From assembly GCA_946222495.1 (NCBI GenBank), contig CAMICF010000001.1, positions 1-48,132 on the forward strand: DNA of 48,132 bases, written 5' to 3'. A model generated the notes under the pieces. It ran no database searches. It was not told the DNA's origin and saw only the letters and a list, made by a program, of their open reading frames with translations. The translations under genes and the position numbers were made by a program. Of this stretch, positions 970-10,404 are shown piece after piece. Positions within the stretch are counted from its first letter, which is position 1; each line of letters opens with the position of its first letter. The stretch is from an uncultured Janibacter sp. GTDB lineage: Bacteria; Actinomycetota; Actinomycetes; Actinomycetales; Dermatophilaceae.

Positions 970-1878
970 TCAGTGCGCGGGCACGTAGTGCGAGGCGTCC
1001 CCGGAGATGGCGCGGCTCGTCGTCCCGTCGATGCCGAAGGGGACGTCGCCGGCGACGGTGACCCGGTGCTTGAGGCGGGGCAGCCCGTCGTAGTTGTCCG
1101 GGGCGTAGTGCTGGGTGATCTGGTTGTCGAAGATCACCAGCTGGTCCGGCTCCCAGGTGACGCGGACGACGTTTTCCGGGCGGGTGATGTAGGCCTGCAG
1201 CAGTCGCAGGATGTCGCGGCTCTCGGTCTTGGACAGCCCGACGAAGCGGGAGACGAAGCCGCCGAGGTACAGGCCGCGCTCCCCCGTCTCCGGGTGCACC
1301 CGCACGACGGGGTGCTCGGTCTCGAAGGTCTGCGCGGTGAACTGCGCGCGGCGGTCCTGGGCCCCCTCGTCGATGTCCTCCGGCGGCACGGCGTAGTCGT
1401 AGTCGTTGGTGTGCACGGCCCACAGCCCGTCGGCGAGACGACGCAGCGGCTCGGGCAGGTCGCGATAGGCGGCGGCCGTGTTCGAGATGAGGGTCTCGCC
1501 GCCGTAGGGGGCGACGACCTTGCTCGCGAGGGTGGTCGCCTTCGGCGGGGCGTGGACGAAGGTGACGTCGGTGTGCCAGTGGTTGGCGGCGGAGCCGCCG
1601 AAGGTCTGCGAGTCCACGGGGAGCACCTTGGGCGCACCGTCGACGGAGGGCACGGTCGGGTGGGCCCCGGTGAGCTCCCCGAAGGAGGCGGCGAAGCGCT
1701 CCTGGGCGGCGTCGTCGACCGGCGCGTTCTTGAAGACGAGCGCCTTGTGCTCGTGGAGCGCCCCGCGGACGAAGGCGATGGTGTCCTCGTCGAGCGGCTG
1801 GGTCACGTCGACGCCGACGACCTCGGCACCGATCCGTCCGGTGATCTTGCGGATGTCGCGAATCGTCGTGGTGCTCAT
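970..1878 (-). CDS. TauD/TfdA family alpha-ketoglutarate-dependent dioxygenase (sulfonate/sulfate-ester)
   Basis: HWHTDVTF (HxD), GGETL, HPVVRVHPETGE, FDNQITQHYA, HRVT. Start MSTTT at 1878 overlaps the upstream stop. Confidence 0.93.
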   Translation of the reverse strand: MSTTTIRDIRKITGRIGAEVVGVDVTQPLDEDTIAFVRGALHEHKALVFKNAPVDDAAQERFAASFGELTGAHPTVPSVDGAPKVLPVDSQTFGGSAANHWHTDVTFVHAPPKATTLASKVVAPYGGETLISNTAAAYRDLPEPLRRLADGLWAVHTNDYDYAVPPEDIDEGAQDRRAQFTAQTFETEHPVVRVHPETGERGLYLGGFVSRFVGLSKTESRDILRLLQAYITRPENVVRVTWEPDQLVIFDNQITQHYAPDNYDGLPRLKHRVTVAGDVPFGIDGTTSRAISGDASHYVPAH

Positions 1879-3227
1879 GCTGCGTTCTCCTTGCTCGTGG
1901 TGGACGTGGTGCTGTGGCTGATCCGGCCCTGCTCGGGCCGGGCGAGGCCGTAGTGCTCGCGGAGGGTCGACCCCTCGTACTCGGTGCGGAAGAGGCCGCG
2001 CCGCTGCAGCTCGGGGACGACGGTGTCGACGAAGACCTCGAGGCCCTGCGGGTACGTCGGCGGCATGATGTTGAAGCCGTCGGCCGCTCCCTTCGTGAAC
2101 CACAGCTCGAGGTCGTCGGCGATCTGCTCGGGCGTCCCGGCGAGGACGCGGTGCCCGCGGCCTCCCGCCAGCCGCTCGATGAGCTGGCGGACGGTGAGGT
2201 CCTCGCGGCGGGCGAGCTCGGTGACGAGGGTGAAGCGGCTCTGGTTGCCCTGGGTGATCTGCTCGATCTGCGGCAGCGGCCCGTCCAGGTCCTCCTCGGT
2301 GAGGTCGATGTCGAGCATCGCCCGCAGCTGCGCGAGCCCGTAGGCGGGCACGATGCCCGCGTTGATCTCGGCCTCGAGGCGGCGGGCCTCCTCCTCGGTG
2401 GAGCCGATGATCGGCGAGATGCCCGGCAGGACCAGCAGCTCGTCGCGGCGACGGCCGTGCTGGGCCAGGCGCCCCTTGAGGTCCTCGTAGAACTCGATCC
2501 CGCCCTCGAGGGTCTGCTGGGCGGTGAAGACCGCCTCGGCGTACCTCGCGGCATAGGCCCGGCCGGACTCCGACGACCCGGCCTGGACGAGGAGCGGGTA
2601 CCCCTGGATCGGGCGGCGGACGTTGAGCGGACCCGCCACGTCGAAGAACTCGCCGTGGTGGTCGACCCGGTGGATCCGGTCGGTGTCCGCGAAGACCCCG
2701 CTCTCCTTGTCGGCGAGGACGGCGCCGTCGCCGAAGCTGTCCCACAGCTCCGCCGCGACCTCGAGGAACTCGGTCGCCCGCTCGTAGCGGCGGGAGTGGT
2801 CCGGGCGCTCGATGCCGAAGTTGCCGGCCTCCGCCCTGGACCCGGACGTGACGATGTTCCACCCGGCCCGTCCACCGCTCAGGTGGTCGAGCGAGGCGAA
2901 GGCCCGGGCCAGCGTGTACGGGTGGTTGTACGTCGTCGACGCGGTGGCGATGAGCCCGACGTGCTCGGTGCTCGCGGCGAGCGCCGAGAGCAGGGTGAGC
3001 GGCTCGAAGGCGCTGTGCGAGTTGTGCTTGACGTTGTCGGCCTGCGCGACGGTGTCGGCGAGGAAGACCGAGTCGAGCCGGCCGCGCTCAGCGGTGCGGG
3101 CGATGTCGACGTAGTGCGCCAGGGTCAGCGCCCGGTCGGGTCGCGTGGAGTGGTGGCGCCAGGCCGCCTCGTGGTGTCCGTTGGGCATGATGAAGGCGTT
3201 GAGGTGGAGCCGTCGTTGCGTGGTCAT
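1875..3227 (-). CDS. LLM-class FMNH2-dependent monooxygenase (NtaA/SnaA/DszA family)
   Basis: LHLNAF, AERGRLDSVFLAD, FEPLTLLSALA, FASLDHLSGGRAGWNIVTS, QAGSS, VPELQRRGLFRTEYEG. Confidence 0.93.
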   Translation of the reverse strand: MTTQRRLHLNAFIMPNGHHEAAWRHHSTRPDRALTLAHYVDIARTAERGRLDSVFLADTVAQADNVKHNSHSAFEPLTLLSALAASTEHVGLIATASTTYNHPYTLARAFASLDHLSGGRAGWNIVTSGSRAEAGNFGIERPDHSRRYERATEFLEVAAELWDSFGDGAVLADKESGVFADTDRIHRVDHHGEFFDVAGPLNVRRPIQGYPLLVQAGSSESGRAYAARYAEAVFTAQQTLEGGIEFYEDLKGRLAQHGRRRDELLVLPGISPIIGSTEEEARRLEAEINAGIVPAYGLAQLRAMLDIDLTEEDLDGPLPQIEQITQGNQSRFTLVTELARREDLTVRQLIERLAGGRGHRVLAGTPEQIADDLELWFTKGAADGFNIMPPTYPQGLEVFVDTVVPELQRRGLFRTEYEGSTLREHYGLARPEQGRISHSTTSTTSKENAA

Positions 3228-3254
3228 GTGGATTCCTTTCCGGGAGAAGGGGGC

Positions 3255-4133
3255 TCAGCTGCCCTGAGGGGTGACGCGCCACCGCGAGAAGCGCTGCTCG
3301 AGACGCACCAGGCCGGTGTTGACGATGAGCCCGAAGACGGAGACCGTGATGATCCCGGCGTACATGTCGGGGATCTGGAAGCTCGACTGGGCGTTGGTGA
3401 TGAGGTAGCCCAGCCCCGCCTTCGCCCCGACCATCTCCGCGGCGATGAGGACGAGGATCGCGGAGGTGCCGGCCATCCGGACACCGGTGAAGATCGTCGG
3501 CACCGCGGACGGCAGGACGACCTTCGCGAAGAGCTGCAGGTTGGACAGCCCGAGGCTCCGGGCGGCGCGGACGAGCAGCGGGTCGACCGTCCGCACCCCG
3601 GCGACGGTGTTGAGGAGCACCGGGAAGAAGGCCGCGAAGGCGACGATCGAGAACTTGCTCAGCTCGCCGATCCCGAGGAGCAGGGTGAAGACCGGGAGCA
3701 GCGCGAGGGCCGCGGTGTTGCGGAAGAGCTCGAGCAGCGGCGTGAGGAACTCGCGCAGGCCGTCGTACCAGGCGATGGCGATGCCGATGACGACACCGCC
3801 GACCACGGCGAGGCCGAAGCCGACGACCGACCGGGTCAGGCTCGCGACGAGGTGCTGCTGCAGCTCACCGGTGGCCGCGAGGTCCCACCACGCCTGGAGC
3901 ACGACGTGCAGCGGCGGGAGGAAGACCTTGACGTCCGGCTGGAGCAGGTACTGGGTGCCGAACTCCCAGAGGAGGAGGAAGAGGACCACCGCGGCGGACC
4001 GGCGGATGCCGGTCCGGACCGCGCCGAGGGTGCGGGCCCGGACCGAGGGTGCCTCGGGCACCTGCGTCACCGGGGCCGAAGGGGGCGCCCCTTCGGTGGT
4101 CGGGGTGGACGGGGACAGGGTTGCGGTGCTCAT
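3255..4133 (-). CDS. Sulfonate/nitrate/taurine ABC transporter permease (SsuC/TauC-like)
   Basis: Multiple TM helices, an EAA-like loop (LVRAARSLG), LIAAEMVGAKAGLG. Confidence 0.9.
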   Translation of the reverse strand: MSTATLSPSTPTTEGAPPSAPVTQVPEAPSVRARTLGAVRTGIRRSAAVVLFLLLWEFGTQYLLQPDVKVFLPPLHVVLQAWWDLAATGELQQHLVASLTRSVVGFGLAVVGGVVIGIAIAWYDGLREFLTPLLELFRNTAALALLPVFTLLLGIGELSKFSIVAFAAFFPVLLNTVAGVRTVDPLLVRAARSLGLSNLQLFAKVVLPSAVPTIFTGVRMAGTSAILVLIAAEMVGAKAGLGYLITNAQSSFQIPDMYAGIITVSVFGLIVNTGLVRLEQRFSRWRVTPQGS

Positions 4134-4978
4134 CAGGCCGCCTTCTCGGTGCCGTCGGGCTGGATCTTCTGGTGGCCGGCGCTCTGGGCCCGCTCGACCT
4201 CTTCGTGCAGCAGGCTCCAGATCTGGTGCCGGTAGGCGACGAACTCGGGCTCCGACCGCAGGTCGACGGCCCCCGCACGGTCGCCGAGGTCGATGTCGAC
4301 GACCTCCTTGAGGCGTCCGGGACGGGAGGAGAGCACCGCGACGCGCTGGCCGAGGTAGACGGCCTCCTCGATGCCGTGCGTGATGAAGACGGCGGTGGTC
4401 CCGGTCGCCCGCCAGATCCGCAGCAGCTCGTCCTGCAGCTGCTCACGGGTCTGGGCGTCGAGCGCCGCGAAGGGCTCGTCCATGAGGAGGATCCCCGGCT
4501 CGTAGGCGAGGCTGCGGGCGATCGCCACCCGCTGCTTCATCCCTCCCGAGAGCTCGTGCGGCAGTCGGTCCTCGAAGCCGGAGAGCCCGACGAGGTCGAG
4601 GTACCGGCGCGCCCGCTCGGTGCGCTCCCGGCGGCTGATCGGCAGCTGCTCCAGGCCGAAGGTGACGTTCGCCAGGGCGGTGCGCCACGGAAAGAGCGCG
4701 TACTGCTGGAAGACGATGCCGCGGTCCAGGCCGGGTCCGCGGACCTCAGAGCCGTCGACGAGGACGGACCCGCTGCTCGGCCGGCTCAGCCCGCCGAGCA
4801 GGTCGAGCAGGGTGGTCTTGCCGGACCCGCTCGGGCCGACGAGGGTGAGGAACTCCCCTGCCGGCACCGTGAGGCTGATGTCCTCGAGCGCCCGGAGGAC
4901 GGTCGCTCGCGGCTGGTCCTTCGTCGGTCGGACGACGAACTCCTTGGTGACATTGCGCAGCTCGATGCTCGAGGTCAC
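4133..4978 (-). CDS. Sulfonate ABC transporter ATP-binding protein (SsuB/TauB-like)
   Basis: Walker [32 protein letters not shown] start overlaps the upstream TGA (GTGA). Confidence 0.92.
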
Positions 4979-6021
4979 GTCGACCCCTCCTTCGCCAGAT
5001 CGTTGAACTCGTTGGTGTAGTAGGACGCCGGGTCGAGCTGTCCCTTCCGGACGACGTTGCTCCGCACGAGGTAGCCCTCCCACTGGGTGAAGTCCTTGTC
5101 CGAGATCACGCCGCCGCGGGAGGGGACCCCAGAGCTCTTCCAGTGGGTCAGCGGCTCGAGCGCCTCGTTCCGGTCGCGCTGCCGGACGATCTTCGTGTAG
5201 CGGTCGATGACCTCCTGGCGGCTGTGGCTCTTCGTCCACTCGATGGCCTTGGCGACCCCCGTGGTGAAGTCCCGGGCGGCCGCCGGCTCCGCGTCGATGA
5301 AGTCGTTGCGCAGGACGTACTGCCCGCCGTTGATGTGTCCGAGGAAGCTCGTGTCCCGCACGAGCTCGCGGATGTCGTCCGCCCCGAGCGCCCGGTCCTG
5401 GAGGATGTCGCTGAGGATCCCGACGTCGACCTGACCCCGGCGCACGGCCTGCTCGGTGTCGTTCGGCGGCAGGACGACGAGCTGGACCTTCTTGATCTCC
5501 GCCGGGCCCAGCCCGGCCTCCGTGAGCCAGGTGTCGACCGAGGCCTCGGCGTGACCACCGAGGGTGTTGACCGCGATCTTCTTGCCGACGAGGTCCTTGG
5601 GCGACCTGATCGTGCTGTCCCTGCGCACGTAGAAGCCTTGATAGTTCTTGGCGTTCGACCCGTAGTAGTTGACGACCGCCGTGATCGGCGACCCCGCCTC
5701 GATGAGGTTGACGACGGCCCCGGTGAAGGCGCCCCCGACGTCCGTCTGGTTCGTCGCCACCGACTGGATGTCCTGCGGCCCGCTGATCGTCGCCCCGACC
5801 CACTTCAGCTTGACGACGTCGAAGTACCCGAGGTCCTCGGCGAGCTCGGGGCCGAGGACCTTGTTGGCCCAGCTCTGGTAGCGCAGGACGACCCGGCCGT
5901 CCTTCGTCCGCGCGGCGGCCGCGGCCTCGCTGCCCGGAAGGGCGCAGCCGGCCAGCGCCGAGCTCGTCGCCAGCCCGGCCGCACCGAGGAGGAGGGACCG
6001 GCGGGAGGTGAGCGCCGCCAT
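4975..6021 (-). CDS. ABC substrate-binding lipoprotein (SsuA-like), probable Tat export
   Basis: N-terminal SRRSLL twin-arginine motif, lipobox [19 protein letters not shown]. Confidence 0.88.
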
Positions 6022-6620
6022 CAGGCCACCGCTTCCGAGCGGAGGAAGAGCTCGCCGCGGTGCGCCTCGTCCGAGGCCGAGAGGAGCGAGCGGCCGGCGA
6101 TGGTGTCGAGGAAGACCCGGGTCACCTCGGCCAGGGGCGTGGCGGCGGACTCGGCGAGGGTGACCTCGCCCCCTTCGTGCCGGGTGACCTCCGAGGCGAG
6201 GACGAACCACCCCGGGGTGATGGCGCTCGGCGCGAGGCTGGCGAGGACCGGACGCAGGGCGTAGTCGACCGCCAGGACGTGGGCGGGGCTGCCGCCGGTG
6301 GCGATCGGCAGGGCCACCTTGTCCTGGAGCGCGGTCTGCGGCAGCAGGTCGAGGAAGGCCTTGAGGAGGCCGCTGTAGGCGGCCTTGTAGACGGGGGTGG
6401 AGACGATGACCGCGTCGGCCTGCTGCAGGGCCTCCGATGCCGCGGCGATCTCGTAGTCGTCGGCGTCGGCGCGCAGCAGGGGCCCTGCCGGGAGGTCGCG
6501 CAGGACGATCGGGCTGACGACGTGTCCGGCGCGCTGGACGCGCCGGGCGAGGTCGCCGAGGACGGCCTCGGTGCGGGAGGTGGTCGACGGGCTGCTGGAG
6601 ATGGTGGCGATGACAGCCAT
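6021..6620 (-). CDS. ssuE: NADPH-dependent FMN reductase
   Basis: SSPSTTSRT, STPVYKAAYSGLLKAFLDLLPQ, ATGGSPAHVLAVDYALRPVL. Confidence 0.9.
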   Translation of the reverse strand: MAVIATISSSPSTTSRTEAVLGDLARRVQRAGHVVSPIVLRDLPAGPLLRADADDYEIAAASEALQQADAVIVSTPVYKAAYSGLLKAFLDLLPQTALQDKVALPIATGGSPAHVLAVDYALRPVLASLAPSAITPGWFVLASEVTRHEGGEVTLAESAATPLAEVTRVFLDTIAGRSLLSASDEAHRGELFLRSEAVA

Positions 6621-6718
6621 GCGTGGGCGCCTTTCTGGGCAGGGTGGATCGACGGCGGACGACGGTGTCGTCCCCGGATGGGCGATGCGGGGGAAGGGGT
6701 CTCGGGACCCCGGCTAGA

Positions 6719-6808
6719 TCAGGCTCGACACAGTGAGCTGTTGACCCGGAGCAGGTCGACGTGCCGGCGCAGCACGCGCCGCAGCGCTGTCGTCATCAGG
6801 TGGCTCAT
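6719..6808 (-). CDS. Putative Cys-containing leader peptide, 29 aa MSHLMTTALRRVLRRHVDLLRVNSSLCRA (not in the ORF track)
   Basis: Manual translation from ATG 6808 to TGA 6719. The RRHVDLxRVxSxLC C-terminus resembles actinobacterial leader peptides found ahead of sulfur genes. Alternative in-frame ATG at 6829. Confidence 0.8.
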   Translation of the reverse strand: MSHLMTTALRRVLRRHVDLLRVNSSLCRA

Positions 6809-6842
6809 GTGGTGATCCGTCCTCGTCATGAGGAGGCCCGGA

Positions 6843-6959
6843 GGCCCCGCGCTTGCTCCCACCGGTCCGGCAGGAGCCTGGTCCTCACCCGGAGCACCCC
6901 ACCGCGAGATGGAGGGTTGCTGTCCAGCGAGCCGGGGCTTGGTGCTGGAACTCGTGACC
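6843..6959 (-). ncRNA. SAM-IV riboswitch
   Basis: Minus strand reads GGUCACGAGUUCCAGCACCAAGCCCCGGCUCGCUGGACAGCAACCCUCC...CGCGGUGGGGUGCUCCGGGUGAGGACCAGGC...GCAAGCGCGGG, matching SAM-IV conserved blocks. It lies upstream of a sulfur operon. Confidence 0.92.
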
Positions 6960-6967
6960 TGATGAAG

Positions 6968-6996
6968 AACCTACGCAGATCCATCTCCTACCGCAA
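6968..6996 (-). promoter_or_regulatory. Sigma70-type promoter for the riboswitch/sulfur operon
   Basis: TTGCGG-N17-TAGGTT ending 8 nt before the aptamer 5' end. Confidence 0.6.
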
Positions 6997-7046
6997 GACT
7001 CGGAGATGCCCTTCTTGCATCGTGGACACCACCCGTCCCCGCACAC

Positions 7047-7084
7047 GCAGACGTCCCGCACGCCGAGGCGTGCGGGACGTCTGT
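7047..7084. terminator. Hairpin downstream of the DAHP synthase gene
   Basis: gcagacgtcccgcacgcc-ga-ggcgtgcgggacgtctgt near-perfect inverted repeat. Confidence 0.75.
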
Positions 7085-7110
7085 GACCGGGGTCGGAGGT
7101 GGGGCGTGGC

Positions 7111-8460
7111 TCAGCGCGCTCCGAGCATCTCCGCGGTGAGGAAGGCGAGCTCGAGGCTCTGCTGGTGGTTCAGCCGCGGGTCGCAGACGCTCTCGTAGCG
7201 CTTGTTGAGGTCGGTGTCGAGGATCCGCTCGGCGCCACCGAGGCACTCGGTGACGTCGTTGCCGGTGAGCTCGACGTGCAGGCCACCGGGCACCGTGCCG
7301 AGCGACTGGTGCACCTCGAAGAAGCCGCGCACCTCGTCGACGACGTCCTCGAAGTCGCGCGTCTTGAACCCGGACTCCGACTCGAAGGTGTTGCCGTGCA
7401 TCGGGTCGCAGATCCACGTGACGATCGCGCCGGAGTCGCGGACCTTCTCGATGATCGGCGGCAGCGCCTCGCGGATCTTGCCGGCGCCCATGCGGGTGAT
7501 GAAGGTCAGGCGGCCGGGCGTGCGGTCCGGGTCGAGGAGGTCGATGATCCGCAGCAGCTCGTCGGGGTCGGCCTTGTCGGAGACCTTCATGCCGATGGGG
7601 TTGCTGATCCGGCTGACGAAGTCGAGGTGCGCGTGGTCGAGCTGGCGCGTGCGCTCCCCGATCCACAGGAAGTGCCCCGAGGTGTCGTAGAGGTCTCCGG
7701 TGCGCGAGTCGACACGGGTCATCGGACGCTCGTAGTCGAGGAGCAGCGCCTCGTGGGCCGACCAGAACTCGGTGATCTTCATGGCGTCGAAGTCGACGCC
7801 GCAGGCGGCCATGAACCGCATCGCCTTGTCGATGTCGTGGGCCAGACCCTCGTAGCGGCGGTTGGCGGCGTTGGAGACGAAGCCGACGTTCCAGTCGTGC
7901 ACGCGGCGCAGGTCGGCGAAGCCGCCCTGGGTGAAGGCCCGCACGAGGTTCAGCGTCGACGCGCTCGTGTGGTACCCGCGCAGCAGGCGGTTCGGGTCGG
8001 GGTTGCGCGCCTCCGGGGTGAAGGCGAAGTCGTTGACCATGTCACCGCGGTACGCGGGCAGGGTGACGCCGTCGCGGGTCTCCGTGTCCTTGCTCCGGGG
8101 CTTGGCGAACTGGCCGGCCATCCGGCCCATCTTCACCACGGGCATGCCCGCGCCGTAGGTGAGCACGGCGGCCATCTGCAGGACCGTCTTGATCCGGTCG
8201 CGGATGTTGTCGGCGGTGGCGTGGCTGAAGGTCTCGGCGCAGTCGCCGCCCTGGAGGACGAAGGCCTCGCCGATGGAGGCCGCGGCCATCCGGTCGCGCA
8301 GGTCGTCGCACTCACCCGCGAAGACGAGCGGGGGGTAGCTCCCCAGGGTCGCCACGGCCTCGTCGAGGACGTCGCGGTCGGGCCAGCTCGGCTGCTGGGC
8401 GGCCGGGAGGTCGCTGGCGATGGGGTCGGCGGACGTGGGGGTGGGCACTGCAGTGGTCAC
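7111..8460 (-). CDS. aroG: Class II 3-deoxy-7-phosphoheptulonate (DAHP) synthase
   Basis: AAQQPSWPD, QGGDCAE, GRMAGQFAKPRS, LWIGERTRQ, CDPMHGNT, CDPRLN. Confidence 0.96.
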   Translation of the reverse strand: MTTAVPTPTSADPIASDLPAAQQPSWPDRDVLDEAVATLGSYPPLVFAGECDDLRDRMAAASIGEAFVLQGGDCAETFSHATADNIRDRIKTVLQMAAVLTYGAGMPVVKMGRMAGQFAKPRSKDTETRDGVTLPAYRGDMVNDFAFTPEARNPDPNRLLRGYHTSASTLNLVRAFTQGGFADLRRVHDWNVGFVSNAANRRYEGLAHDIDKAMRFMAACGVDFDAMKITEFWSAHEALLLDYERPMTRVDSRTGDLYDTSGHFLWIGERTRQLDHAHLDFVSRISNPIGMKVSDKADPDELLRIIDLLDPDRTPGRLTFITRMGAGKIREALPPIIEKVRDSGAIVTWICDPMHGNTFESESGFKTRDFEDVVDEVRGFFEVHQSLGTVPGGLHVELTGNDVTECLGGAERILDTDLNKRYESVCDPRLNHQQSLELAFLTAEMLGAR

Positions 8461-8524
8461 CCCCACAGGATAGGGCGCCGGCGGCCAGGAGCCGCACCCG
8501 TCCCCTCCAGCGGACGAAGGGAGG

Positions 8525-9217
8525 TCACTCCGGCTGGTCGAGACCGCGGCTGATCGCGAAGCGCGTCAGCTCGACGCGGTTGTGCAGGTGCAGCTTTCCG
8601 AGGATGTTCTGCACGTGGTTCTGCACGGTGCGGTGGGAGATGACGAGGTCCGTCGCGATCTCCTTCGCCGTCATGCCCATGGCGACGTACCGGAGGATCT
8701 CCGTCTCCCGCCCGGTGAGCTCGGGGATGCCGGAGGGGTCCCCGGCGCTCTCGTCCTCCGCCGGTGCCGTGGCGTGCGCCTGGCTGCTCATCTCGCGGAA
8801 CTCGCCGAGGACCAGCCCGGCCAGGCCGGGGGTGAAGACGGCGTCGCCCGCACCGGTCGCGGAGACCGCGTCGCGGATCTCGCTCGAGGAGGCGGACTTC
8901 ACGAGGTAGCCGCTCGCCCCGGCCTTCACCGCGGCGAGCACGTCCTGCTCCTCGCCGCTCGCGGAGAGGATGAGGACCTTCGTCGGGAGGTCACCGATGG
9001 CCCGGCACACCTCGTCGCCGCGCATCTCGGGGAGGTTGAGGTCGAGCACGAGGACGTCGGGGACGGTCGCCCTCGTGCGCCGGACCGTCGCGGGCCCGTC
9101 GGCCGCGGTCCCGACGATGTCGAAGGCGTTCTGCTCGAGGTCGCGGACGAGGGCGTCCCGCCACAGCGGGTGGTCGTCGGCGACGAGGACCTTCAGGGGT
9201 CCGGAGGACTCGGTCAT
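8525..9217 (-). CDS. NarL/LuxR-family response regulator (MacR-like)
   Basis: VLVADDHPLWRD receiver domain, LTGRETEIL...SHRTVQNHVQN HTH. Confidence 0.9.
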   Translation of the reverse strand: MTESSGPLKVLVADDHPLWRDALVRDLEQNAFDIVGTAADGPATVRRTRATVPDVLVLDLNLPEMRGDEVCRAIGDLPTKVLILSASGEEQDVLAAVKAGASGYLVKSASSSEIRDAVSATGAGDAVFTPGLAGLVLGEFREMSSQAHATAPAEDESAGDPSGIPELTGRETEILRYVAMGMTAKEIATDLVISHRTVQNHVQNILGKLHLHNRVELTRFAISRGLDQPE

Positions 9218-10404
9218 GGGGCAGAGCCTGCCATGCGCGCCGTCGGGAGCGTCAGGGTGACCGTCGTTCCTCCCCCGGCCGGCGCGCGCCACTGCGCGTC
9301 GCCGCCGAGGTCGAGCATCCGACCACGGATCGAGCTGCTCGCCCCGAGGCGTCCCTGCTCGGCCGCCTCGACGAGCCGGTTGGCGGCGATGCCGGACCCG
9401 TTGTCCCGGACGACGACCTGGAGGCCGTCGGAGTCCGTGTCGAGGAGGACCCACGCCTTGGCGTCCTCGCCCGCGTGCCGCGTCACGTTGTCGAGCGCGG
9501 CGACGACCGCCGCCTCGACCTCCCGGGCGGTGGCGGTCGGCAACGGCACGGCCCCCGGGGGCAGGACGACCTCCACGGACGCGGAGCGCAGCCGGGTCAG
9601 GGCGCGGGCGAGGTCGGTGACATCCGAAGGGGGCACCGCGGAGCCCGCCGGTGGCGGCACCGGCTCCGCGCGCGAGATGAGGGTGCGCAGGGACCGCTCC
9701 TGGTCCGCCGCGAGCCGGGCGAGGTCCTCCCCTTCGCCACCCATCTCACGACCTCTGCGGTTGATCATCGCCAGCGCCTGGAGGACCCCGTCGTGGACCT
9801 GGCGTCCGATCCGCTCCCGCTCGGCGAGCCGCTCGCTCGCGGAGAGGGCCTCCTCGAGCCGCTTCTGGCTCTCGCGGGCCAGCTGGACGGCCAGCCCGAC
9901 GAGGATGCCGAGCAGGTAGAGCAGCATGACGTTGTGGTACGTCAGCTGGCTGGGCTCCTCGGCCTGGATGAGGTTGGCCACGGCGATGACGGTGGCGCCG
10001 ATGACACCGCCGCGGATGCCCGAGAGCAGGGCCGCGGCCATGACCGACGAGGCCGACCAGATGCCGGGCACCGTGGAGATGCCCCCCTCCACCTGGCTCG
10101 CGGTGTAGACCTCGCTCGTGAGGAAGATCCCCACGCAGGCGATGACGAGCTCGACGGCGATGGCCGTCCAGGTCGGGCGCGGGAGCAACGGCGCCGCCAC
10201 CGACCAGGCGAGCGCGACGATGCCGTAGACGACGATCGGCCACCAGTGGACGACGTGCTCACGGTGCACCCCGACGAGCACGGCCGCGTAGAAGATCGAG
10301 AGGAACCGGTAGAGAGCCAGCCCGCGGCCACCGGCGCTGTCGATGAGCGGTGACGGGTTGTACTGCCGAGGCATCGAGCCGACCGCGCCGGGCTCCAGGG
10401 TCAT
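9214..10404 (-). CDS. Membrane sensor histidine kinase (HisKA_3, MacS-like)
   Basis: Several TM helices, ERERIGRQVHDGVLQ H-box, NVTRHAG, VRDNGSG, GGGTTV. Confidence 0.88.
   Translation of the reverse strand: MTLEPGAVGSMPRQYNPSPLIDSAGGRGLALYRFLSIFYAAVLVGVHREHVVHWWPIVVYGIVALAWSVAAPLLPRPTWTAIAVELVIACVGIFLTSEVYTASQVEGGISTVPGIWSASSVMAAALLSGIRGGVIGATVIAVANLIQAEEPSQLTYHNVMLLYLLGILVGLAVQLARESQKRLEEALSASERLAERERIGRQVHDGVLQALAMINRRGREMGGEGEDLARLAADQERSLRTLISRAEPVPPPAGSAVPPSDVTDLARALTRLRSASVEVVLPPGAVPLPTATAREVEAAVVAALDNVTRHAGEDAKAWVLLDTDSDGLQVVVRDNGSGIAANRLVEAAEQGRLGASSSIRGRMLDLGGDAQWRAPAGGGTTVTLTLPTARMAGSAP

Follow-up and report, generated by a model that had tools for sequence, protein, structure and literature searches.

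Polycysteine-encoding leaderless short open reading frames (sORFs) of mycobacteria have been shown experimentally to relieve the repression of their operons under cysteine shortage (Canestrari et al., bioRxiv 10.1101/834739). The accessible part of that work mentions neither riboswitches nor the choice between TGT and TGC codons. In Mycobacterium tuberculosis, a route from a riboswitch via an upstream open reading frame (uORF) to the termination factor Rho has been published for the pe20 Mbox-rv1805A leader (PMC12810186) and for the B12 switches (PMC11260477), as far as the accessible text of both papers goes. Here we describe a leader from an uncultured Janibacter sp., located in a stretch of 48,132 nucleotides (nt) (GCA_946222495.1, contig CAMICF010000001.1, positions 1 to 48,132; hereafter the window), in which an S-adenosylmethionine (SAM)-IV riboswitch is followed by a cysteine-type leader peptide and then by the sulfonate-scavenging gene ssuE. 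Comparison of related loci argues that this composite leader is real and conserved and is built from two known kinds of sensor. In our interpretation, which we hold with slightly more confidence than doubt, two sensors of the sulfur supply act one after the other within a single mRNA leader, and the operon would be switched on only when SAM and cysteine are both low.

Coordinates are positions in the window, and leader, uORF and operon are all encoded on its minus strand. An initial annotation had read a SAM-IV aptamer at 6959-6843, and the Rfam covariance model RF00634 bore this out with a full-length match at 6959-6844 (model positions 1-116 of 116; 107.3 bits, gathering score 38; E 6.3e-19). 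The element lies in the 5' leader of a sulfur operon headed by ssuE, and a Shine-Dalgarno (SD) sequence and a start codon follow close behind: the SD sequence GAGGA is found 20-24 nt and the ATG of a 29-codon uORF 36 nt past the aptamer, and the start of ssuE 223 nt downstream of it. Four SAM-IV copies, the one described here included, are present in the window's genome. At the other three, the SD sequence and the ATG of a long open frame are located 14, 14 and 39 nt past the aptamer (counted by hand; the genes were assigned by layout only, as long open frames). Because the spacing behind the aptamer matches that of these loci, the uORF holds the usual place of the regulated gene. Judged by this arrangement, the window's SAM-IV element faces the start of the uORF, not that of ssuE. 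The uORF start lies 16-38 nt past the aptamer in all 16 loci of the taxonomic family in which the same peptide directly follows a SAM-IV element (hereafter stacked loci).

The initial annotation had also proposed a promoter TTGCGG-N17-TAGGTT, and this claim stood in part. The candidate -35 element TTGCGG (6996-6991) and the candidate -10 element TAGGTT (6973-6968; of the form TANNNT), the latter 8 nt before the aptamer, are present in the sequence, but a scan with the sigma-70 consensus called no promoter site at all, these elements included. We therefore judged the promoter by conservation among the stacked loci and not by the consensus scan. In 14 of the 16 stacked loci, the start of a TANNNT box is found 13-15 nt ahead of the aptamer GGUC, which the regular expression mis-anchored in the remaining two. 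By eye, a TTGC -35-like element recurs at a similar distance in the stacked loci, and a box comparable to TAGGTT also precedes the genome's other three SAM-IV loci.

The uORF (6719..6808) extends from the ATG at 6808 to the TGA at 6721-6719 and encodes MSHLMTTALRRVLRRHVDLLRVNSSLCRA (29 amino acids). Its lone Cys is residue 27 of 29, encoded by TGT at 6730-6728, in agreement with the earlier reading of a single Cys three residues from the end. Two further potential start codons are in frame with it, an ATG at 6829, in a hairpin loop, and a GTG at 6862, neither of which has an SD sequence or is conserved; the ATG at 6808 is the start that aligns with the orthologous leaders. The peptide matched the NCBIfam family NF042934 ('putative leader peptide', cis_reg_atten) with E 3.9e-6 and 26.3 bits, 0.7 bit below the cut-off of 27, and NF042936 (Ms4527A family Cys-rich leader peptide) with E 3.8e-4 and 20 bits, below the cut-off of 45. 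These scores place the uORF in, or at the edge of, a known actinobacterial leader-peptide family. A Pfam match to HCV_env (E 0.18) was rejected as spurious.

A search with the leader DNA in the window's taxonomic family revealed conservation between genera in the second half of the uORF. This search gave many weak chance matches at E ~0.001-0.01, and only those co-located with the peptide or with ssuE were kept. The resulting alignment of 12 loci contains ten invariant columns and yields the C-terminal consensus RRHVDLLRVSSALCR-x-stop, which in the window corresponds to the motif RRHVDLLRVNSSLCRA at 6722..6769. The core motif RRH[VI]DLxR[VI]xSxxC is complete in the window, where it reads RRHVDLLRVNSSLC-RA-stop; the wording RRH[VI]DLxRVxSxxC is our own and was derived from this alignment. 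The N-terminal halves of the stacked uORFs are variable and rich in Thr and Arg (MTARTTT, MARTTT, MSTDTTRT, MTHTTDRRTR), which may be an effect of composition or a further codon signal.

A peptide profile built from the 12-locus alignment was used to search 151 genomes of the taxonomic family and found the peptide at 41 places in 29 of them. One of these places (L055) was false and was dropped, and two loci (L051, L072) carry the peptide but lie on contigs that end before the downstream open reading frame (ORF), so that spacers and codons were counted in 38 loci. A SAM-IV element, detected with an nhmmer profile, is located directly upstream at 16 of the 41 places, in 11 genomes from 7 genera, with 89-136 nt between the aptamer end and the uORF stop. 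Rfam confirmed SAM-IV at 8 of 11 earlier non-self loci carrying the peptide. The number of 16 is a lower bound, since the profile missed another stacked ssuE leader, L007, in which the peptide has the variant sequence RRHVQLRRVASALCRS. Overall, the 151 genomes contain 428 SAM-IV matches in 137 genomes, and hence only a small share of the SAM-IV copies is stacked. Five genomes (G034, G097, G102, G118, G146) each carry two separate stacks in front of different sulfur operons, which suggests a small regulon.

The peptide is not restricted to this family. A pattern scan of species-representative genomes across the phylum, in which the wobble position of the Cys codon was left free, gave at least 120 matches from Streptomyces, Kitasatospora, Pseudonocardia, Frankia, Amycolatopsis, Nonomuraea, Gordonia, Rhodococcoides, Mycolicibacterium, Mycobacteroides and others. 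Of the 120 matches listed, 114 have a stop codon no more than 6 codons after the Cys. Outside the taxonomic family, 3 of 114 loci among the matches listed are stacked (L131, L171 and L109, the last from a Kineosporiaceae metagenome-assembled genome, MAG), all of them confirmed by Rfam, and 15 other loci sampled across the phylum have no riboswitch beside the peptide. The locus L131, from an uncultured Actinomycetota MAG, carries two SAM-IV aptamers back to back, ~140 nt apart (5459-5571, minus strand, and 5711-5823, plus strand), one of which heads a leader peptide. In a Nonomuraea locus (L119), a match to the ZMP/ZTP riboswitch (1584-1662, minus strand; 44.3 bits, gathering score 39) is not adjacent to the peptide. 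Stacked copies have an SD sequence, while the non-stacked loci L013, L019 and L030 look leaderless, with a TANNNT-like box ~6-7 nt before ATG or GTG (by eye).

The peptide sequence itself is under selection. Pairwise comparison of the 11 core codons in the 38 loci gave 2957 synonymous versus 1467 nonsynonymous differences; Arg is encoded by four different codons and the invariant Ser by AGC, AGT, TCG and TCC. Selection thus acts on the peptide at the amino-acid level.

The Cys codon behaves differently from its neighbours. It is TGT in 36 of the 38 loci of the taxonomic family and in 111 of 114 phylum-wide loci among the matches listed, for which the search pattern had allowed TGY. In comparison, TGT makes up 310 of 4878 Cys codons (6.4%) in ~1865 ORFs called by GC content at third codon positions (GC3), a background that refers to the window's genome only, and the genes downstream of the leaders contain 3 TGT versus 43 TGC. 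All other core codons mostly end in C or G. The loci are related and the TGT counts are hence not independent of each other. Because the wobble position stays T while neighbouring wobble positions drift, this pattern indicates that the TGT bias reflects selection on the codon. A leader peptide that senses charged tRNA would be expected to rely on a slowly read codon, for which the leu leader is a precedent. Additional Cys codons of the phylum-wide peptides are TGT-enriched as well (23 TGT versus 33 TGC, among the matches listed), measured against the 6.4% of the window's genome.

These observations can be combined into the following mechanism. Transcription would start just before the SAM-IV aptamer, whose translational platform would control initiation of the 29-codon leader peptide, not of ssuE; with SAM bound, the uORF would stay untranslated. 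The leader peptide would report the cysteine supply via a single wobble-decoded UGU codon two codons before the stop, and the conserved nascent chain probably renders ribosomal pausing there more sensitive. A ribosome paused at UGU would cover the stop codon and the start of the spacer and thereby keep Rho off. Both at high SAM, when the uORF is not translated, and with ample Cys-tRNA, when the uORF ribosome terminates promptly, the spacer would be bare and transcription would end before ssuE. Expression of the sulfonate-scavenging operon would accordingly be confined to conditions of low SAM and low cysteine, perhaps as a strict AND gate. A more far-reaching version, which we regard as possible but rather doubtful, is that RRHVDLxRVxSxxC is a true ribosome arrest peptide across Actinomycetota, whose conserved nascent chain would either render the ribosome hypersensitive at the single UGU or allow it to detect a sulfur metabolite within the exit tunnel. 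Once stalled, the ribosome would shield a Rho utilization (rut) site from the stop codon onwards, and together with SAM-IV this would give a two-input AND gate. Such nascent-chain stalling is compatible with the amino-acid-level conservation, which spans ~15 residues whose spacing to the Cys and the stop codon is constant.

The region between aptamer and uORF contains the parts expected of such a platform (6820..6847). GGGCCUCC occurs twice in tandem at 6847-6832 as an anti-SD sequence, followed by the hairpin UCCUC-AUGAC-GAGGA at 6834-6820, the 3' arm of which is GAGGA (6824-6820), the only good SD sequence. The hairpin lies where the initial annotation had placed it and is present in both the minimum free energy (MFE) and the centroid fold of the leader. 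Three elements are common to the orthologous ssuE leaders, namely the aptamer tail GAGGC, a middle GCCUC and an SD-proximal GAGGA or GAGA; in the permease and binding-protein leaders the corresponding elements are GGACYC, CGGGUCC and GGACCCGAGGAG. The middle element is able to pair with either the aptamer tail or the SD-proximal copy. The tail falls within the Rfam SAM-IV model, and we take it to form a pseudoknot in the bound state. Such a three-element layout is what a translational OFF switch would need, with the UCCUC/GAGGA hairpin as the putative OFF helix.

The spacer between the uORF and ssuE (6621..6718) is rich in C and poor in G and represents a candidate loading region for Rho. Its 98 nt contain 0.47 C and 0.26 G, and a scan for intrinsic terminators in 6400-7200 found no site, which fits the ~100-nt C-rich spacer without terminator of the initial annotation. 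Two further elements lie within it, a predicted hairpin at 6696..6711 and the SD sequence of ssuE, AGAAAGG, at 6630..6636. The spacers of all 38 loci have more C than G (mean C 0.47, G 0.27), compared with an average of 0.35 C and 0.33 G for 489 upstream regions of the window's genome, only 3.9% of which reach the window spacer's skew of 0.288. Given the closeness of the Cys codon to the stop, two codons before it, the footprint of a ribosome paused there would extend over the stop codon and onto the beginning of this spacer.

A number of results weigh against the proposed mechanism and have to be set against it. The whole leader does not fold better than shuffled sequences (z -0.67 and -0.22). 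RNAalifold returned the helix between tail and anti-SD (tail:middle), not the SD-masking hairpin; its input consisted of two platform groups of 9 and 5 sequences with 0 and 1 compensatory pairs, which are too few and too alike to prove either of the competing helices. In the folding model of the 16 stacked loci, SD accessibility dropped upon blocking of the tail in just 10, and its mean was the same with the tail blocked or free (0.45 and 0.45); for the window it went from 0.49 to 0.34. The downstream coding regions also contain more C than G, if to a weaker extent (0.41 versus 0.31), and composition alone does not make a rut site. The uORF has a single Cys codon, compared with the two or more consecutive ones of the published criterion, and none of the two other species searched in the window's own genus carries the peptide. 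The two sensors in series proposed in the initial annotation are upheld as far as their parts are concerned, namely a real aptamer, a conserved peptide of the Cys type, an SD sequence and start codon at the position controlled by SAM-IV, an occurrence in at least 7 genera and a C-rich, G-poor spacer at all 38 loci measured. The masking of the SD sequence by SAM, modelled in just 10 of 16 loci, the action of Rho on the spacer and a strict AND-gate logic are putative.

The output step could also be of a different kind. Both sensors could be kept and the output be purely translational, with an RNA duplex hiding the ribosome-binding site (RBS) of ssuE, the uORF ribosome opening it and Rho not being the primary factor, an alternative that we consider unlikely but to which we still concede an appreciable chance. 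It has a precedent that counts against our mechanism, since for one characterised relative, the homologous leader sORF Ms5788A, RBS masking was shown and transcription termination was excluded, according to the accessible part of the report (10.1101/834739). In the window, the MFE fold pairs codons ~6-15 of the uORF with the SD/start region of ssuE, and the 5' part of the uORF accounts for 62% of the pairing probability of the ssuE SD sequence. In the folding model, this SD sequence was not opened when a ribosome occupied the Cys codon (accessibility 0.40 to 0.37). At five loci with short spacers (L035, L047, L056, L063, L064), the SD sequence is predicted to pair with the conserved motif. There the ribosome raised accessibility in L035 (0.16 to 0.38), L063 (0.40 to 0.60) and L064 (0.28 to 0.61), but not in L047 (0.48 to 0.44) or L056 (0.67 to 0.66), and over the 38 loci the mean did not change (0.47 to 0.47; Wilcoxon p 0.23). 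A general duplex of the Ms5788A type finds no support in the long-spacer loci on this basis, as the ribosome-footprint model revealed no consistent unmasking. Moreover, the spacers of the stacked loci measure 96-410 nt, which puts the RBS far from the pause site, and a duplex leaves the consistent C over G skew of the spacers unexplained. For the long-spacer stacked leaders we therefore favour, with reasonable though limited confidence, an action of Rho over an RBS duplex.

The genes that follow the peptide tie it to sulfur metabolism. Downstream genes were picked by GC3, because choosing the longest ORF had given spurious GC-rich ORFs; 20 representative downstream proteins were scanned against Pfam, and the other loci were grouped by eye via similar N-termini. 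All 21 of 21 scanned downstream proteins belong to sulfur-related or transport families. Behind SAM-IV stacks, we found SsuE at 5 loci (the window included), an ABC (ATP-binding cassette) permease at 5, an SBP_bac_3 binding protein at 3, a luciferase-like monooxygenase at 2 and cysteine dioxygenase at 1. At the loci without riboswitch, the peptide precedes genes for cysteine dioxygenase (7 loci), sulfite reductase (6), TauE (3), OsmC-like proteins (2), ABC components (2), TauD (1) and 3'-phosphoadenosine-5'-phosphosulfate (PAPS) reductase (1). The cysteine dioxygenase-like genes lie behind L035, L030, L046, L047, L056, L063 and L064 without riboswitch and behind L061 with SAM-IV. Cysteine dioxygenase is expected to be induced by an excess of cysteine, not by its lack, so these genes either encode cupins with another role or are governed by a different leader logic.

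This gene set also speaks to a second alternative, in which the uORF would only be the translated 'handle' of the riboswitch, protecting against Rho at low SAM as has been proposed for Mbox-rv1805A, with the Cys codon providing no second input and the peptide possibly being a small protein that acts in trans. In M. tuberculosis, uORFs under riboswitch control are described together with termination by Rho (PMC12810186, accessible text), the window's peptide has just one Cys codon, and its conservation exceeds the needs of a codon sensor, all of which would fit this view. We nevertheless consider it improbable. In 25 of 41 places the peptide heads genes such as those for sulfite reductase, PAPS reductase, cysteine dioxygenase, TauE and TauD with no riboswitch present, and because it does so, it appears to be a regulator in its own right that is tied to cysteine metabolism. 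In addition, the TGT bias (111 of 114 loci among the matches listed) points to the Cys codon itself, and the polycysteine relatives respond to cysteine, as stated in the accessible part of 10.1101/834739. Finally, the idea that the uORF is open merely by chance, as happens in GC-rich DNA, and that the leader is just an unusually long SAM-IV 5' untranslated region, deserves practically no credence: spurious ORFs are indeed common in GC-rich genomes (63 ORFs of at least 25 amino acids in 7 kb) and the uORF lies 0.7 bit under the NCBIfam cut-off, but it is refuted by the recurrence of the motif in 29 of 151 family genomes and at no fewer than 120 loci phylum-wide, by the stop codon within 6 codons of the Cys (114 of 120 among the matches listed), by the mostly synonymous variation and by the consistent association with sulfur genes.

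If the two-sensor mechanism is correct, the cell computes on two sulfur end-products, SAM and cysteine, without a protein regulator. Among the loci examined, those with a stack carry operons for organosulfur scavenging and sulfur transport behind it, and in one case a cysteine dioxygenase gene. Scavenging and transport genes should run only when both pools are low, and the gene set of the stack therefore fits a logic based on two pools. Strictly conserved in its amino acids and nearly always using the rare TGT, the single-Cys peptide found throughout the phylum, which databases list just as 'putative leader peptide', is a candidate for a new arrest peptide or codon sensor.

In the window itself, the leader is followed by ssuE (6021..6620), which encodes a NADPH-dependent flavin mononucleotide (FMN) reductase (TIGR03567 equivalog, 190.5 bits versus a cut-off of 164; Pfam FMN_red). 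The rest of the operon (1875..6020) encodes, by Pfam and NCBIfam assignment, an SsuA-family binding protein, a Tau/Ssu-type ABC ATPase, a permease and a monooxygenase, the starts of the middle genes being approximate. The last of these, at 3227-1875, is an FMN-dependent monooxygenase of the NtaA/DmoA family (TIGR03860, 570.5 bits). The genes upstream of the leader are unrelated and encode a class-II 3-deoxy-D-arabino-heptulosonate 7-phosphate (DAHP) synthase and a DUF5931 histidine kinase with a LuxR-type response regulator (8525-10404 and 7111-8466, both on the minus strand).

The initial annotation had stated that no mechanistic description of this combined architecture was known, which has to be qualified. 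Both the connection from riboswitch via uORF to Rho (PMC12810186, PMC11260477) and the Cys sORFs (10.1101/834739) have been published, to judge from the accessible text of these papers, whereas the combination of SAM-IV with a Cys leader was not found in it. Full-text searches of the literature, subscription journals aside, found no description of a stack of SAM-IV and leader peptide and none of the RRHVDL motif; the string RRHVDL occurs in one paper on hepatitis C virus, which is unrelated. The mycobacterial form of the motif may already stand in the sORF Tables S2 and S3 of Canestrari et al.

Compared with SAM-IV riboswitches that have a translational platform, the leader shares the full-length aptamer at the 5' end of a sulfur-gene transcript, with SD sequence and start codon 16-38 nt behind it. 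It differs in that the start codon it faces is that of a 29-codon leader peptide, with the first enzyme gene not starting until 223 nt past the aptamer. The peptide, for its part, resembles the polycysteine sORFs, which act as ribosome-mediated Cys sensors and to which it is likened by sequence (10.1101/834739, accessible part): both are short leader ORFs in front of cysteine or sulfur genes, with Cys near the C-terminus. The RRH[VI]DLxR[VI]xS..C core is common to the window's peptide and the mycobacterial matches of our scan (L087, L136, L147), which read RRH[VI]DLKR[IV]CS(C)CC and combine this core with a poly-Cys tail of the kind known from the Cys-responsive sORFs. Unlike those sORFs, as far as they are described there, the window's uORF has a single Cys codon where at least two consecutive ones define the published class, and at 20 bits it stays below the cut-off of 45 for NF042936 (leader_Ms4527A). 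Moreover, it lies ~150 nt into the transcript behind an aptamer and is led by an SD sequence instead of being leaderless, and it is followed by a long C-rich spacer, with no consistent RBS-masking duplex predicted.

With the leaders of tnaC, speFL and cruR, as they appear in the accessible text of PMC12360218, the window's leader shares a conserved peptide with critical residues at a fixed distance from the ORF end, and a long spacer with a rut-like region, beginning at the stop codon, that a stalled ribosome would shield. In contrast, what the tnaC-type peptides detect within the exit tunnel is a free ligand, and the stop codon is where they stall (same source). For the leader described here, a tRNA-dependent pause at a rare Cys codon would be the simpler reading. 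A two-signal reading of the Mg2+-responsive mgtA leader was reportedly proposed by Park et al. in 2010. This Salmonella leader likewise joins an RNA sensor to a uORF with amino-acid codons (mgtL, proline codons) that feeds into Rho termination, according to the accessible part of PMC12360218. However, its RNA, peptide and phylum are unrelated, and its uORF is placed inside the alternative structures of the sensing RNA, not behind a self-contained aptamer.

Closest in layout are the Mbox (PMC12810186) and B12 (PMC11260477) leaders of M. tuberculosis, in which, by the accessible text, a riboswitch with a translational platform also directly targets a conserved small uORF and operon polarity is proposed to be brought about by Rho, intrinsic terminators being scarce. 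The window's leader differs from both in its aptamer class, SAM-IV, and in that the uORF itself falls into an amino-acid-sensing leader family, an assignment made here by sequence comparison. Because of this membership, the window's leader would integrate two metabolites, and the theme of a riboswitch acting via a uORF on Rho would reach beyond M. tuberculosis.

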